From Escherichia phage Sortsne, in the sequence record NC_048178.1: a DNA stretch of 41,912 nt; one strand, given 5' to 3'. Each line of letters begins with the position of its first letter. Position 1 is the stretch's first letter. The position numbers and the translations under genes were made by a program. Shown here piece after piece: positions 5,312 to 41,806 of the stretch. The notes below the pieces were generated by a model. The model searched no databases. It worked only from the letters and a program-made list of their open reading frames with translations, and was not told the DNA's origin.

Positions 5312-5829
5312 TCGCCGCCCTCCGGCTGTTCCTCTCGACTCACTGGCGCTTAGTGCTGCTGGCCGTTGTCGTGCTGCTGGCGCTGGGGGGATCTTTCTGG
5401 GCGGGCCACGAGTGGAGCGATCGCGCGTGGTCCAAACGCTGGGCGCAACGGGACGCGAACGACTCCTCCCAGGAAGCGAACGCACAAGCCGCCGCCCGTA
5501 TCATTGAACAGGGGCGAAACATCGCCCGCGAGGAGTCCGTAAAATATGCGAACGAACAGGCCGCAAAAGCTCGCGCCGCTGCTGCTGCTTCTGGTGCTGC
5601 CCTTGATCGGTTGCTCGAACGAGCCAGCAAGGAAGCCGCCCGACGCGAAGCCGCTGATCAGACCGCTGCCCTCGGAAGGGCGTCAGGGGAACAGACCGCC
5701 CGAATGTATTCCGACTTGCTCCGACGGACTGGAGAAGCTGCTCGACGGTATGCTGATATAGCGGAGGGGGCGATCACCGCTGGGGAGGTATGCGAAAGGA
5801 ATTACGACGCCGTGGAGCGTCAGCAATGA
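5308..5829 (+). CDS. i-spanin (Rz-like)
   Basis: N-terminal TM anchor then Ala/Arg/Glu-rich coiled-coil-like periplasmic region; directly after endolysin; contains embedded lipoprotein ORF. Confidence 0.7.
   Translation: MIAALRLFLSTHWRLVLLAVVVLLALGGSFWAGHEWSDRAWSKRWAQRDANDSSQEANAQAAARIIEQGRNIAREESVKYANEQAAKARAAAAASGAALDRLLERASKEAARREAADQTAALGRASGEQTARMYSDLLRRTGEAARRYADIAEGAITAGEVCERNYDAVERQQ
5546..5761 (+). CDS. o-spanin (Rz1-like), embedded in Rz in alternate frame
   Basis: 71-aa ORF wholly inside Rz; signal peptide with lipobox LIGC; proline-rich mature part. Confidence 0.65.
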   Translation: MRTNRPQKLAPLLLLLVLPLIGCSNEPARKPPDAKPLIRPLPSEGRQGNRPPECIPTCSDGLEKLLDGMLI

Positions 5830-5858
5830 GAAAGGGGCCTTGCGGCCCCTTTTTTTAT
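5829..5858. terminator. bidirectional intrinsic terminator between lysis cassette and Ig-like gene
   Basis: AAAGGGGCC-TTGC-GGCCCCTTT stem-loop followed by T7, A-rich on the other side; convergent gene ends. Confidence 0.8.
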
Positions 5859-6625: not shown

Positions 6626-6699
6626 AATTTTGTCCTCATGGTGCGCCGTGTTATAGTTCCCCGGCATTGTAGATCATCTTTGAGCCGTAAACGAAAGGA

Positions 6700-6726
6700 G
6701 CCGCATTTTAAGCGGCCCTTTTTTTT
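6700..6726 (+). terminator. plus-strand-oriented terminator-like hairpin with T8
   Basis: GCCGC-ATTTTAA-GCGGC then CCTTTTTTTT; lies between two minus-strand genes. Confidence 0.35.
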
Positions 6727-17221: not shown

Positions 17222-17252
17222 AGAAAGGGGCCAATTAAGGCCCCTTTTTTTA
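17222..17252. terminator. bidirectional intrinsic terminator between recombination operon and tailspike
   Basis: AAAGGGGCC-AATTAA-GGCCCCTTT plus T-run; convergent gene ends. Confidence 0.8.
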
Positions 17253-19625: not shown

Positions 19626-19651
19626 TAAAAAGGGGGCCTAAGCCCCCGTTA

Positions 19652-34247: not shown

Positions 34248-35870
34248 TTAGCGGTTGCTCGGCACATTATAGCCGTTGTAATCGTCATTTTTCACGCGCT
34301 CCGGCGGCTGCATCAACATGCAAAGCACGTCGGCCATGCCAGGCGATTTCATTTTTAACTTGGTGCGCATCTGCGGCTTAGGCATACGCTGGAATTTCCC
34401 CTCCGTGTTGTAAACGCGGGGAATACGGCATACCTCGGCGCGTAGCTTCTGCATATGCTCCCCGATCCCCTCGCTGGAGAGGCTGATCAGCTCGTCCGGG
34501 TTCACGTACTCGCCGTGGACCACGGCCCGGTAAGTCTTTTCAAAGCGGCGGCGTAACAGGTAGATATCCTGGGAGCCTCGGTTCTTAAAAGCGTTCTGAT
34601 TTTTCAGAAGGTTGTCGCCTTCGGTCTTGTTATTTAGCCACGTATCAAGCTCCACCAGCCCGTCCGGCTGGTTCACGCCATCCCCGGCGTTATACCCCGA
34701 CACGAGGGTGTTAGTCGAGGCGTAAGCGTCGGTGATCTGGCGGCGGAGGCCAGCGCCCAGCCCTGCCCGGTCCCAGATAAACGCCTCCACGCCGTGATCC
34801 TTCGCCGTGTTCACGGCCTTGTCCGCTGCGTCGTTGGCGTCGCCTTCGAACCACTCCTCCATCCACGTGACCACGGAGCCGTAACGCTCGCCGTATGCCT
34901 TGTTATCCGCCCCGACGTCCGCCGGGTCGAGTGCGCCGATCCTCATGCCGGACGGCTTAAAGCCTAATTTCACATGAGCGTCGATCGCCGCGTCGAACCA
35001 CTCCGCCGGGATAATGGCATCCGGTACGCTGTCGTTAAAATGCCCTTCCCACACGTGATCGAACAGCGCGCGGGAGAGGGTTTTCCGGTCGAACTCCATT
35101 TCCGCCCGGAGTTCTGGGGGAAACCACGGATTATCCGACCAGTTAACGCGGATCACGAGGTGGAGATCGTCCTCGTAGATGCCGTCACGAAGGAGATCCT
35201 CCCAGAATGGATTGATAAATCGCTTCGAAAACGCATCCTCTGAGGAGCCGGGGTTCGCGGTGAATAGCATCATGCCGCCGGATTCGCGCATGGTCGGCGT
35301 TAGCTGGCGGATCGACTCCTCGGAAAAGGTCTGCGCCTCCTCACCCCAGAATCGACGATAACCGAACGCGGATTTAACCCCGGCGGGGTCGCGGGCCATC
35401 CCTTTAAAGCGGATGATCGCGCCGTTCTCGTGTCGGATCTCCTTCTCCAGTACCTCGAAGCCGTCCAGGTTCGACGCCTCGATCCGGTTGACGAGTAGCG
35501 GGTGTACGGAGTCCTTGATCGATGCCTGGTACTCACGAAGGCACAGGGCGCTCGTCGCCTCGTCGTGGGCGTCCGCGTCGATGATTGCGCCGACGGTGAG
35601 CGACTTCCCGGAGCCTCGGCCACCGACCAGGATCACAAAGCGCTTAGGCCGTAACAGGATCGGGGTCAGGACCTCCGCGATCGTCAGGTCGTGCGGGTCG
35701 CTGGTGTATACCCACTCGCCGTTAACCTTCTTCATGTTGTAGCAGTGGGCCGCACTGGTCCCATCCGGGCGGTAGACGCCGTAAACCAGCCCGCCCTCCT
35801 TCGCCTTATAGCGGAGTTGCGCCTCCAGTCGTGCGAGGCGCTCCAGCGCCTCCTTACGATTTCTTGCCAT
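34248..35870 (-). CDS. terminase large subunit
   Basis: Walker A VGGRGSGKS near N-terminus; C-terminal acidic RNase H-like nuclease region; upstream of portal. Confidence 0.85.
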   Translation of the reverse strand: MARNRKEALERLARLEAQLRYKAKEGGLVYGVYRPDGTSAAHCYNMKKVNGEWVYTSDPHDLTIAEVLTPILLRPKRFVILVGGRGSGKSLTVGAIIDADAHDEATSALCLREYQASIKDSVHPLLVNRIEASNLDGFEVLEKEIRHENGAIIRFKGMARDPAGVKSAFGYRRFWGEEAQTFSEESIRQLTPTMRESGGMMLFTANPGSSEDAFSKRFINPFWEDLLRDGIYEDDLHLVIRVNWSDNPWFPPELRAEMEFDRKTLSRALFDHVWEGHFNDSVPDAIIPAEWFDAAIDAHVKLGFKPSGMRIGALDPADVGADNKAYGERYGSVVTWMEEWFEGDANDAADKAVNTAKDHGVEAFIWDRAGLGAGLRRQITDAYASTNTLVSGYNAGDGVNQPDGLVELDTWLNNKTEGDNLLKNQNAFKNRGSQDIYLLRRRFEKTYRAVVHGEYVNPDELISLSSEGIGEHMQKLRAEVCRIPRVYNTEGKFQRMPKPQMRTKLKMKSPGMADVLCMLMQPPERVKNDDYNGYNVPSNR

Positions 35871-36276
35871 AGCCCAGATCCTTAAACGTCGCCTCGCACA
35901 AGTTGAACAGGGAGCCGACCAGATACGCCTCCGGCTCGTCGTTGTTCGGGTCCCACTCGATCCCCAGCGTGTCGCCGATGTAGTTCTTTGCGTGGATCAC
36001 CTCGTGGGCGATGGTCGTCCGCCAGTACGGCCCGCGACGGATGCCGATAAATACCAGTTTAACGTCGGCGGCGTGGTACTCGATCGCCGCGCCCTGCTGG
36101 ACAGGCTTCTCCCTGTTCCAATCCGGGAAGCATTCGCCCAGCTTCCCCACCATAGCCTCGTCTGCCGGGTCAAAGCACACGATAAAGTAAGGGTAAGGGG
36201 ACGCCGTGAACCATTTCAGGCCCAGCGCCTCCAGTCGTCCGTAAGTGTCCGGCGGTAACTTATTTTTTCGAGTCAT
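35854..36276 (-). CDS. small HExxH-motif protein (putative zinc metallopeptidase-like) between terminase genes
   Basis: 140 aa; TIAHEVIHAKNY contains HEVIH with acidic residues downstream; overlaps both neighbours by 17 nt. Confidence 0.45.
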   Translation of the reverse strand: MTRKNKLPPDTYGRLEALGLKWFTASPYPYFIVCFDPADEAMVGKLGECFPDWNREKPVQQGAAIEYHAADVKLVFIGIRRGPYWRTTIAHEVIHAKNYIGDTLGIEWDPNNDEPEAYLVGSLFNLCEATFKDLGYGKKS

Positions 36277-36805
36277 GGAGGAGTTGCTCCAGCGTTGCGA
36301 TACGTTCCAGGAGGTCGGACAGTTCGGCCACTTCTGCGCCGTGTCGGATCATCTTCACGAGGACCTCGGCGGCGTCGAACGGGATCACCCCGTCGGCCAC
36401 GTGCTGGGTTAGCTCGTCGATACGGTCGGCGGCGGTCGTGCCTTTGAGTTCGAATTGATAGATCGGCGCGGTCGGCTTCACGTAGGGGATAAGACGGCCC
36501 AGGATATCGCGCATCATGGCCGGGTCATAGAGGGACATTTCGATCGCGCGCTGGATGTATAGCTCCTCGGTAAGCGGGATCTCCACCATTTCGTCCTCCA
36601 TGATCGGGCGGTCGTTCTCGTCCAGCATGACCTCGCCCGTCTTGGGGTTGACCTTTTCGATCTTCTCCCCGGTGCGCTCCTTCATTTTCACCTTGCGGAG
36701 AGCCTCCAGCAAGATCGTGCGGAATTGCTTCTCCCTGCCACGGCGGGCGGGCTGGTTCTCCGCGCTAAACTTCTTGCCCTTCTTAAGATTCTGCTCGTTC
36801 GCCAT
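36260..36805 (-). CDS. putative terminase small subunit
   Basis: 181 aa with basic N-terminus (NLKKGKKFSAENQPARRGREK) and helical remainder; by position; identity uncertain. Confidence 0.4.
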   Translation of the reverse strand: MANEQNLKKGKKFSAENQPARRGREKQFRTILLEALRKVKMKERTGEKIEKVNPKTGEVMLDENDRPIMEDEMVEIPLTEELYIQRAIEMSLYDPAMMRDILGRLIPYVKPTAPIYQFELKGTTAADRIDELTQHVADGVIPFDAAEVLVKMIRHGAEVAELSDLLERIATLEQLLHDSKK

Positions 36806-36806
36806 G

Positions 36807-36858
36807 ATAAAAAAAATCCTCCGGTTGGCCTGAATTGTTCCAGGTGTTGCGGAGGATT
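36807..36858 (-). terminator. intrinsic terminator-like hairpin plus U8 tract immediately upstream of terS start
   Basis: 9-bp stem AATCCTCCG/CGGAGGATT, 26-nt loop, then TTTTTTTT on the minus strand, overlapping the terS RBS. Confidence 0.4.
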
Positions 36859-36862
36859 GTCG

Positions 36863-36891
36863 TTTATACCGGGGCCGTGATCAAGTCCACG
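36863..36891 (-). promoter_or_regulatory. candidate late promoter (-10 TATAAA, weak -35) just upstream of terminator and terS
   Basis: Minus-strand TGGACT-N15-TATAAA; would give a short hairpin-plus-U8 transcript unless antiterminated. Confidence 0.25.
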
Positions 36892-37186
36892 GCGATCCCT
36901 TGCCGGGGGAGAGGTCCGGGCATAGGTGCATATTCTCCGGGGTGATAGGCCAGGGGCTAACCGGGTGACGGTACGCCAGGGAGTCGGCCTTCTTGGCGAT
37001 GTACCCCCGGACCTTCCCGCCGCCGCGCTGGCTGCTGTATGCCGCACAGATCACGCACGAGCCGTTAGTGGTGTATCGAGTGAAGTTGCCGGGGTGCTCC
37101 TTGCACTCCCCGCCGTGGTACGTCTTGCGCTTGAGGAGAAGGGCCTCCGCCCTGCTCCGCGCCACTGAGCGCTCTTTCGTCTCCAT
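36881..37186 (-). CDS. hypothetical Cys/His-containing protein (candidate late regulator)
   Basis: 101-aa ORF coupled to upstream gene (TGATG); 3' end overlaps a promoter-like -10 and precedes a terminator; coding status uncertain. Confidence 0.3.
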   Translation of the reverse strand: METKERSVARSRAEALLLKRKTYHGGECKEHPGNFTRYTTNGSCVICAAYSSQRGGGKVRGYIAKKADSLAYRHPVSPWPITPENMHLCPDLSPGKGSPWT

Positions 37187-37689
37187 CAGTCACAGCCCCC
37201 GGAGGAGGACGATCCGCTGTCGCTGCTGCCGGAGTCGTAGCTCCCGCCGTCGTCGTGGCTGGAGTGGTGGCGGCTGCTGCTGTCGTCGTGGCTGCTGGAG
37301 TGGCTGCGGTGGCTGCTGCTGTCCCAGTCCGCCCGGTCGCTGGTGTGGCAGATCGGATTGAGTGGCGAGGTCAGGGAAAGCGGGTTCAGCGGGTCGAGGT
37401 CGTCGCCCTGGTTGCGGAGTGCGCGCCGGGTCGGGTCGCTGCGGAGGGCGTTCGCCTCACGTGCTGCGGACTTGTCGGCCATGCTGCGGGGAGCCTGCAC
37501 GACCTTAGCCTGGGGACGGTTCGCCATCGTCTCGATCATGCGCTCCATACGCGCCTTACCGCTTAGGACGTCCTGGACGCTGCGCTGGTTGCAGTCGTCA
37601 CAGATCCAGAATACGTCCGCGCTCTCGGTCCATTTGCGCGGGGCCTGCTTGCCGCACGTGCGGCACTCTTTGAAACGTTTAAGGGACAT
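37186..37689 (-). CDS. zinc-ribbon protein with His/Ser/Asp-rich low-complexity tail
   Basis: Start refined to ATG 37689 with conserved CACGAGAGAGA leader; CRTCG...(17)...CDDC ribbon; C-terminal SSSHRSHSSSHDDSSSRHHSSHDD. Confidence 0.45.
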   Translation of the reverse strand: MSLKRFKECRTCGKQAPRKWTESADVFWICDDCNQRSVQDVLSGKARMERMIETMANRPQAKVVQAPRSMADKSAAREANALRSDPTRRALRNQGDDLDPLNPLSLTSPLNPICHTSDRADWDSSSHRSHSSSHDDSSSRHHSSHDDGGSYDSGSSDSGSSSSGGCD

Positions 37690-37757
37690 TGTGATCTCTC
37701 TCGTGGGTGGAAACGGCCCCAGCATAGCGCCGGGGCAAACATCATGCAAGCGTTAAA

Positions 37758-41325: not shown

Positions 41326-41567
41326 AGGTCGGCCTCCTTGTCCTGCCGCTTGCTCTCCTCCACTGCCTCCCGGCGCTTCTGGTCCATCTGCGCCACGAAT
41401 CCCTCCACGGCCTGGGTGGCGAGTCCGGTCGCCTGGTTGTGGCTGAATCCCTTTTTCCGGTAGCGGTCGTAAGCCGACTGGAAAAGCGTCGCCCGTTGCT
41501 GCGGGCCTACATACATATGCGAGAGGTCCACGACGTCCGCCGCCTTCTTCTCCTGCTGCTCTTTCAT
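41322..41567 (-). CDS. hypothetical protein
   Basis: 81 aa, strong GAGGAG RBS 6 nt upstream of ATG. Confidence 0.45.
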   Translation of the reverse strand: MKEQQEKKAADVVDLSHMYVGPQQRATLFQSAYDRYRKKGFSHNQATGLATQAVEGFVAQMDQKRREAVEESKRQDKEADL

Positions 41568-41605
41568 CTCGTTCTCCTCGTTTGCTCGTCGCCGTAACGA
41601 ATCCG

Positions 41606-41806
41606 TTACAGTCCCAGAATGTTAAACACGATCGCCGCTAACAGTACGATGCCAGCGCCGTAAACCGTGAAGCACATCAGCAATAAATTCCACTGGCCGA
41701 CCTCCTTCCGGTACTCGCTGATCGTCTCCGGTTCGGTCCGTCCCCTTGCCTTCCGGTCGGGGAATTTAATCACGTTAATATTAACCTCTCTTTCATCACG
41801 AATCAA
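41606..41806 (-). CDS. questionable small membrane-protein ORF
   Basis: Track ORF begins with TTG and has no RBS; region is dense in operator-like motifs; an AAGGAGG RBS sits further in, in another frame. Confidence 0.2.
   Translation of the reverse strand: MIRDEREVNINVIKFPDRKARGRTEPETISEYRKEVGQWNLLLMCFTVYGAGIVLLAAIVFNILGL

Follow-up and report, generated by a model that had tools for sequence, protein, structure and literature searches.

A candidate sigma70 promoter nested in the 5' arm of a terminator-like hairpin ahead of the packaging genes of Escherichia phage Sortsne and its relatives

How can a phage express its packaging and morphogenesis genes when a terminator-like hairpin stands directly in front of them? 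The question is raised by the genome of Escherichia phage Sortsne (NC_048178.1), which we analysed as one window of 41,912 nucleotides (nt), and specifically by a short intergenic stretch on its minus strand, lying between two small genes, gp50 and gp49, and the gene that occupies the position of the small terminase gene (terS). The original prediction for this locus had seen a promoter followed by a terminator, in the manner of lambda PR' and tR', with gp49 and gp50 as candidate Q-like antiterminators. The reading that we favour, with a probability of roughly 60%, is a different one: for RNA arriving from upstream, the element would act as a terminator and as a lock on the ribosome-binding site, and it would be transparent to a promoter nested in the 5' arm of its own hairpin.

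On the minus strand the intergenic stretch reads CTTGATCACGGCCCCGGTATAAACGACAATCCTCCGCAACACCTGGAACAATTCAGGCCAACCGGAGGATTTTTTTTATCATG and folds into a two-tier hairpin of 44 nt, made up of a 9-base-pair (bp) lower stem, a 5x5 internal loop, a 6-bp upper stem and a 4-nt loop. This fold is predicted at -20 kcal/mol (z = -5.0), a stability that not one of 200 shuffled sequences reaches. Six of the nine lower-stem pairs are G-C and a run of eight U residues (U8) follows, so the element has the GC-rich stem and the U-tract of at least 5 by which a Rho-independent terminator is recognized. Tracts of eight T residues (T8) occur four times in the window against 0.59 expected. When the genome was scanned for hairpins abutting a T-run, the element came out as the fourth most stable, and its T8 is the longest run, tied with one at 6719 on the plus strand. 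The 3' arm contains the Shine-Dalgarno sequence GGAGGA, 11 nt from the start codon of the terS-position gene, and in the predicted fold of RNA initiated upstream this sequence is paired within the stable hairpin. The claim that a minus-strand hairpin and its U8 overlap the terS ribosome site is therefore borne out. Since the gp49 stop codon lies 23 nt ahead of the hairpin, a terminating ribosome should not melt it. Rfam returned no family for the whole window at gathering thresholds, and none for positions 36700-37000 at E<=10. A search of viral contigs for the exact stem (ATCCTCCG...CGGAGGATTTTT) gave 34 matches, most of them on contigs not otherwise retrieved as relatives.

The promoter is a less simple matter. 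The hexamer TATAAA, which had been put forward as the -10, is present and matches the consensus at five of six positions, but it lacks the critical last T. The best -35 that can be paired with it is TGGACT at a spacing of 15 nt, the site takes rank 620 in a sigma70 weight-matrix scan of the genome, and the equivalent positions in relatives read TAACCG, GATAGA, TACAGA, AATAAA, CATGGC and TTTTGG. With no usable -35 and no conservation, the hexamer does not hold up as a -10. A reading of it as a T4-type late promoter was also rejected, because the hexamer is unconserved.

Seven nucleotides downstream of TATAAA lies a second candidate, GACAAT, which together with TTGATC has the features of a sigma70 promoter: a TTGACA-like -35, a spacer of 16-18 nt, and a TATAAT-like -10 whose second base is A and whose sixth is T. 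We compared the site across 23 distinct intergenic homologues from the Sortsne, IME279 and Murray groups and across distant relatives added by way of the large terminase gene (terL), namely Skarpretter, the Skarpretter-like contig L242, C130_2, Kc166B, Kc259 and the soil metagenome contig L195. In this region C130_2 is identical to STP9, and Kc166B to Kc237. The promoter reads TTGATC-17-GACAAT in Sortsne, TTGATC-17-GATAAT in Murrayvirus, TTGATT-17-GATAAT in Skarpretter, TTGATC-18-CATAAT in C130_2, TTGCCT-17-TAGAAT in Kc166B, TTGATC-18-TACAAT in Kc259 and TTGCCA-17-TAAAAT in L195; TTGATA-17-GACAAT and TTGACC-17-GACAAT are further conserved pairs that were seen. Across 17 unique sequences from nine lineages TTG is invariant, and so is xAxAAT (positions 2, 4, 5 and 6 of the -10) across the nine. 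The spacer measures 17 nt in seven lineages, whereas C130_2 and Kc259 have 18 nt. The Sortsne/Murray group shows no indels, and the columns of the spacer have a mean entropy of 1.4 bits versus 0.5 bits for those of the -35. At the level of sequence, an invariant TTG and xAxAAT separated by a spacer of free sequence and fixed length is the pattern in which a sigma70 promoter is conserved; lambda PR, for example, has GATAAT as its -10.

Several observations suggest that neither the stem nor the overlapping stop codon accounts for the two hexamers. C130_2, with the AAT unpaired, and Skarpretter, with hardly any lower stem, both keep the xAxAAT hexamer; more generally, the promoter is kept where the stem or the U-run has been lost (Skarpretter, C130_2 and Kc259). 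The upstream gene of Kc166B and that of L195 have their stop codons outside the -35 hexamer, so a stop codon does not explain TTG there. An independent scan for consensus promoters also reports the site, with 9/12 in sortregn and with 10/12, the best in that locus, in L195. A looser pattern that combined the promoter with AACC matched more than 120 loci and was too noisy for use. As a separate observation, the stop codon of the upstream open reading frame (ORF) is always TGA and within the -35 (TTGAxx) in Sortsne, Murrayvirus, Skarpretter, C130_2 and Kc259, despite differing C-terminal residues.

What gives the arrangement its interest is the way in which promoter and hairpin overlap. The 5' arm has its first base within the -10 in all lineages, either at its AAT or, in C130_2 and L242, at its final T, and the GC core of the arm fills the six discriminator positions. 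By sequence geometry, then, the conserved promoter lies in the DNA for the 5' strand of the hairpin. The sigma70 holoenzyme normally starts 7-8 nt after the -10, and the first A of an AACC(C/A)UG motif stands 7-8 nt after the -10 in every lineage that bears the motif; L195 has an A there without the motif. These start-site rules predict a start at about 36848, just 3' of the 5' arm and inside the hairpin. A transcript that starts there cannot form the lower stem or the terminator and cannot mask the ribosome site, and transcripts from the embedded promoter would need no antiterminator. The coordinates of these and neighbouring features are collected in Table 1.

Table 1. Features of the element and its surroundings, with positions counted along the window
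Feature	Position	Strand	Remarks
Candidate gp50-gp49 promoter, TTGCAT-17-TATGCT	37721-37749	minus	Inverted repeat GCCCC (37736-37732)/GGGGC (37720-37716) brackets the -10
ORF of 167 amino acids (aa), gp50	37186-37689	minus	N-terminal CxxC...CxxC ribbon and conserved Ser/His/Asp-rich tail
ORF of 101 aa, gp49	36881-37186	minus	CHCC zinc motif and C-terminal GYIAK...HPVSPWPIT...NMHLCPDLS block
-35 hexamer, TTGATC	36879-36884	minus	Contains the TGA stop of the 101-aa ORF
Promoter spacer, 17 nt	36862-36878	minus	Sequence free, length fixed; contains TATAAA (36863-36868)
-10 hexamer, GACAAT	36856-36861	minus	Last three bases, AAT, form the first three lower-stem pairs
Lower stem, 5' arm, AAUCCUCCG	36850-36858	minus	Coincides with promoter positions -9 to -1, and its GC core with the discriminator
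Predicted transcription start	36848-36849	minus	7th-8th nt after the -10, A at 36848 favoured; then AACC(C/A)UG
Upper stem-loop, CCUGGA-ACAA-UUCAGG	36829-36844	minus	3-5 nt from the predicted 5' end of the promoter's own transcript
Lower stem, 3' arm, CGGAGGAUU	36815-36823	minus	Holds Shine-Dalgarno GGAGGA (36822-36817)
U8 tract	36809-36816	minus	Directly after the stem; with the hairpin, an intrinsic-terminator signal for RNAs carrying the 5' arm
terS-position gene, 181 aa	36260-36805	minus	phrog_9747, function unknown; ATG at 36805

From the computed structure, the conservation and covariation, the hexamers with their spacing and the geometry of the overlap, we infer the start site, the efficiency of termination, the translational block, the timing and the regulation of the promoter in the following way. 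The element would be a nested terminator and promoter, joining the upstream small-gene unit to the packaging and morphogenesis operon. Transcripts from upstream, including any from the candidate promoter of gp50 and gp49, would include the hairpin with its two arms; in them the 9-bp lower stem would form directly before the U8, and most polymerases would terminate at about 36809-36816. In whatever RNA reads through, the Shine-Dalgarno sequence of the terS-position gene would be locked in the stem. Host RNA polymerase at TTGATC-17-GACAAT would instead start just past the 5' arm, and its RNA would meet the U8 without a preceding hairpin, have its ribosome site free and continue into terS, terL and portal. 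This RNA would keep the small upper hairpin close to its 5' end, which may protect or stabilise the messenger RNA. The good -35 argues for recognition by unmodified host polymerase, and the GC-rich discriminator might, as a speculation, make the promoter conditional.

If the stem matters, its two arms should have changed together. Lineages were anchored on the -10 and the pairs were taken from the minimum-energy fold of each sequence; MAFFT had misaligned the 3' arms of the distant lineages, so pairs were tabulated from these anchored folds. All six positions of the lower-stem GC core, -6 to -1, show compensatory changes between lineages: C-G, G-C and U-A at -6; C-G and G-C at -5; U-A and C-G at -4; C-G and U-A at -3; C-G, U-A and G-C at -2; and G-C, C-G and U-A at -1. 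The arms read CCUCCG/CGGAGG, GCCCCU/AGGGGC, CCCC/GGGG, CGCUUCA/UGAAGCG and UUCCCG/CGG(A)GAA across lineages, and pairing is retained in Sortsne, Murrayvirus, C130_2, Kc166B, Kc259 and L195. In C130_2 the arm is UGAAGCG, which is unlike a Shine-Dalgarno sequence, so the pairing is no by-product of G-rich ribosome sites facing C-rich discriminators. Fold z-scores range from -2.8 to -5.2 in seven lineages, and Skarpretter itself is the only one without the lower stem (z = -0.55). The upper stem, as CCUG/CAGG or CAUG/CAUG, is kept in every lineage including Skarpretter, except in L195, where it is a 3-bp UGG/CCA. We also noted that the upper hairpin of C130_2, Skarpretter and Kc166B is CAUG-UAAU-CAUG, an AUG followed immediately by UAA (L064:1585-1655, L063:1909-1978 and L065:2391-2459), which Sortsne does not have.

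A U-run of 5-8 follows the stem in five of eight lineages (Sortsne, IME279-type, Murrayvirus, Kc166B/Kc237 and L195) and is missing in C130_2, Kc259 and Skarpretter. Since the promoter is kept in all lineages and the U-run in most, the promoter is the universal core and the terminator an addition in most lineages. By sequence comparison this core is accompanied by the upper hairpin, with the reduced form in L195. C130_2 and Kc259, which have a stem and no U-run, would presumably have the translational lock only. In a scan of 125 terL-related loci the architecture was confined to a clade with terL identity of about 50% or more.

Several points weigh against the nested reading. A good -35 leads one to expect early firing, and the nested reading does not account for the timing. 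In Sortsne itself the site scores 8/12 and ranks 31 of 418,770, with 30 other sites as good or better; given this weak single-sequence score, the case for the promoter rests on conservation. In some lineages the stem also constrains the AAT of the -10, and the stop codon also constrains the TGA of the -35. The lower stem is invariant inside the Sortsne/Murray group, so that the covariation comes from about five distant lineages, anchored as described and with no formal statistic. The three lineages that lack the U-run mean that termination is not universal, and a standard terminator scan does not call the long two-tier hairpin, because its allowed loop is 3-8 nt. Finally, the literature that we found on the clade consists of genome announcements and taxonomy, with no mapped transcript 5' or 3' ends for any of its phages.

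Among the alternatives, the one that survives best, unlikely as we judge it, is that of a plain intrinsic terminator, in which the ribosome site lies in the 3' arm by chance, the hexamers are unused and the late genes are reached by partial readthrough. It has in its favour a strong hairpin and U-run and the modest promoter match in Sortsne, which is not significant alone (5 matches to the core pattern against 2.2 expected). The element also resembles Rho-independent terminators in that a GC-rich stem abuts a U-tract, with A residues before it, and its stability is comparable to that of Sortsne's own end-of-operon terminators at 17.24 kb, 5.85 kb and 19.63 kb. It differs from them in its two-tier stem with a 5x5 loop, in a 3' arm that is itself the ribosome site and in a start codon 11 nt further on. 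A plain terminator leaves unexplained why an invariant TTG should stand at a fixed 17-18 nt from xAxAAT across a free spacer in nine lineages, and why the hexamers are retained where the terminator is lost. Structural genes placed behind an efficient terminator and a masked ribosome site would moreover be poorly expressed.

We consider it a rather long shot that the element is a dual-output module in the fuller sense that discriminator and Shine-Dalgarno sequence co-evolve as the two arms of one stem and that the gp50-gp49 cassette encodes a new type of regulator which times the promoter. Improbable to a somewhat greater degree is an RNA-processing or translational-operator site, at which a cut by RNase III or the binding of a protein would unmask or control the terS ribosome site on a polycistronic RNA, as in the lambda N leader or at T7 RNase III sites. 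In overall shape, about 20 bp-equivalents with an internal loop resemble sites of the T7 type, and the upper stem-loop is conserved in both sequence and pairing. The U-run directly after the stem points instead to termination; the lack of any Rfam family even at E<=10 tells against such a site as well, and the promoter hexamers would go unexplained.

This leaves Q antitermination, in which a short RNA would end at the hairpin and U8 unless gp49 or gp50 modified RNA polymerase. A good deal about the locus recalls lambda PR'-qut-tR' with Q (and Q21, Q82 and P22 gp23): a promoter and a terminator-like signal occur within about 80 bp, immediately ahead of the late genes; a small zinc-motif gene lies directly upstream, and the gp50-gp49 unit, with a conserved candidate promoter of its own, occupies the position of lambda Q; and a gp49 homologue holds this position in Skarpretter and C130_2. 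In addition, a second intrinsic terminator before the tailspike gene, within the operon, needs some readthrough. The lambda terminator, however, lies wholly downstream of the start, and lambda depends on Q, whereas the conserved Sortsne promoter is predicted to start inside the hairpin and to yield an RNA without the 5' arm. The promoter-plus-terminator unit that had been proposed upstream of terS thus exists, and it marks the boundary between the small genes and the morphogenesis genes, but it does not have the lambda geometry; the proposal that an unmodified transcript would end before the packaging genes is unsupported for the same reason, as the 5' arm occupies -9 to -1 and the predicted start is 3' of it.

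Most of the remaining evidence on Q points the same way. TATAAA is unconserved and without a -35, C130_2, Kc259 and Skarpretter keep the promoter without a U-run, and Kc166B, Kc259 and L195 have an unrelated small gene upstream. Neither gp49 nor gp50 matches the Q families (Antiterm, Phage_antitermQ, Phage_antiter_Q) in Pfam at E<=0.1 or in NCBIfam at E<=1, and a profile search of the Protein Data Bank (PDB) with both ORFs at E<=10 gave only noise and no Q fold; the gp49 model is too poor for a fold comparison. For a pause element in the initial transcribed region the picture is less clear: the upper stem-loop offers -10-like hexamers such as AACAAT in Sortsne and TGTAAT in C130_2, but, as far as a reading of the sequences shows, lineages differ in the critical A (position 2) or T (position 6), and no such element seems to be kept. 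The sequences thus offer no support for lambda Q-type antitermination here, which we regard as very improbable, and the description of gp49 and gp50 as Q-like antiterminators is to be withdrawn. A regulatory role of gp49 or gp50 is possible. A role as a pac or cos site or genome end was also rejected: the record of sortkaff does begin within the element, but the point at which it was opened, 10 nt into the coding sequence of the terS-position gene, looks like an arbitrary break in a circular assembly.

The nested reading has a precedent in phage T4. In the case of e (lysozyme), soc, 49 and I-TevI of T4, the ribosome site of early readthrough RNA is sequestered in a hairpin; late promoters located in the DNA that encodes its 5' strand produce RNAs without that strand, and these are translated (PMC3014915, which cites McPheeters et al., 1986). 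By analogy, this is the closest known logic, and it matches that proposed for Sortsne: long upstream RNAs bury the Shine-Dalgarno sequence in a hairpin, the promoter lies in the 5' half and the gene under control is a late one. There are four differences. The Sortsne promoter is of the sigma70 type with a -35, whereas the T4 promoters are of the gp55 type, TATAAATA; the hairpin of the Sortsne type is followed by a U-run in five lineages and should also terminate transcription; the Sortsne -10 and discriminator coincide exactly with the 5' arm; and the gene that would be controlled heads a whole packaging and morphogenesis operon. Phrase searches of the literature for promoter-in-terminator arrangements returned nothing relevant.

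Turning to the genes upstream, the two coupled Cys/His ORFs were correctly anticipated: gp50 and gp49 overlap as TGATG, gp49 has conserved residues C28, H31, C44 and C47, and gp50 has its CxxC...CxxC. The N-terminal half of gp49 (37040-37130) is one copy of a widespread CHCC repeat, Y-x-G-x2-C-x2-H ... G-x-C-x2-C, which was all that a profile search with gp49 among 1.8 billion representative proteins brought up; 114 representative proteins match it, often in 2-5 copies. The repeat is unnamed and has no Pfam model, and Pfam gave no name for the matching proteins except for one Endonuclease_7 fusion. An AlphaFold2 model of gp49 built from 13 sequences has a mean pLDDT (predicted local distance difference test) of 46.6 and is unusable for fold comparison. 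In gp50, a short zinc ribbon, for which Pfam gave only sub-threshold zinc-ribbon matches, is followed by a variable linker and the conserved Ser/His/Asp tail. The most conserved part of the protein is this low-complexity tail, LNPLSxxSPLNP ... DWDxSSHR ... SYDSGSSDSGSSSSGGCD (37186-37450, minus strand), which from its composition is expected to be disordered. It also occurs joined to other N-termini, as in P0105, where the N-terminus is hydrophobic and possibly transmembrane, and in the ribbon-less P0086.

The gp49 homologues of Skarpretter and C130_2 lie directly upstream of the element; Kc166B, Kc259 and L195 keep the element but carry upstream of it an unrelated small helical protein. Upstream of gp50, a stretch of about 60 nt hardly varies, spacer included, among 11 genomes of Sortsne, IME279 and Murray type, and this near-invariance at 37716-37749 suggests an operator. 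Judged from the sequence, gp50 and gp49 look like a discrete two-gene cassette with its own candidate promoter, ending at the terminator of the element. The C130_2 record annotates a 284-bp terminal repeat (41492-41775); as the element of that phage lies about 1.3 kb further downstream, the small genes ahead of it would start at a physical end of the genome.

The wider setting is a clade of podophages that are rich in GC and carry virion (morphogenesis) genes like those of P22. The two ORFs, of 101 and 167 aa, match gp49 and gp50 of Sortsne exactly, and the relatives are Sortsnevirus (IME279 and sortkaff) and Murrayvirus (IME_EC2, sortsyn, sortregn, Lumpael, KMB41 and ST231). RNA polymerase is missing from the annotation of phage ST231, and the annotations of the relatives list neither an RNA polymerase nor a Q protein. 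In the window a single long minus-strand block runs from about 1.8 kb across the record junction and down to 17.25 kb, in the order small hypothetical genes, terS-position gene, terL, portal and structural genes, and the element stands at the border between the small upstream genes and the packaging and morphogenesis genes. Downstream of the 181-aa gene, with one small ORF between, comes terL (Terminase_3, E = 3e-30); in contigs L055 and L056 the terS-position gene directly abuts terL. The 181-aa protein had no family, PDB or fold match: its AlphaFold2 model has a pLDDT of 66.9, and Foldseek found no match to it in the PDB at E<=0.001. The name terS fits by position, and with no fold match the identity stays positional.

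Some further features of the operon were recorded along the way. The small ORF between the terS-position gene and terL (140 aa; 35854-36276, minus strand) belongs to phrog_1365, of unknown function, has an HExxH motif (HEVIH) and is absent from L055 and L056. Inside the 3' end of terL, just upstream of portal, lies GTGAAA-18-TATAAT (34266-34295, minus strand; 10/12), also reported at the same place in sortregn; it may be an internal promoter or no more than coding sequence that is conserved. Between the 1015-aa gene and the tailspike gene (19627-19650, minus strand), just ahead of the tailspike ribosome site, there is a canonical terminator made up of GGGGGCUUAGGCCCCC and then U5; as it is internal to the long late operon, some readthrough is required further downstream. 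Terminators with an A-tract, a GC stem and a T-run (AAAGGGGCC...GGCCCCTTTTTTT) stand at operon ends at 17223-17250 and, on the plus strand, at 5828-5856 and 6693-6726; the 17.24-kb terminator is situated at the convergence of the plus and minus gene blocks.

For the annotation of these genomes, the idea that gp49 and gp50 are Q-like is corrected. For the biology of the group, the analysis provides a concrete, testable model of how early and late expression may be split in an unstudied clade of virulent podophages that takes in Sortsnevirus, Murrayvirus, Hungariovirus, Skarprettervirus and Kosakonia phages. If the model is true, it would extend the T4 principle of a promoter inside an inhibitory hairpin to sigma70 promoters and to transcription termination, and it would provide an example of a promoter discriminator that co-evolves with a ribosome-binding site. 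The element would then also be a natural insulator part of about 80 bp, which blocks and silences incoming transcription while starting its own.

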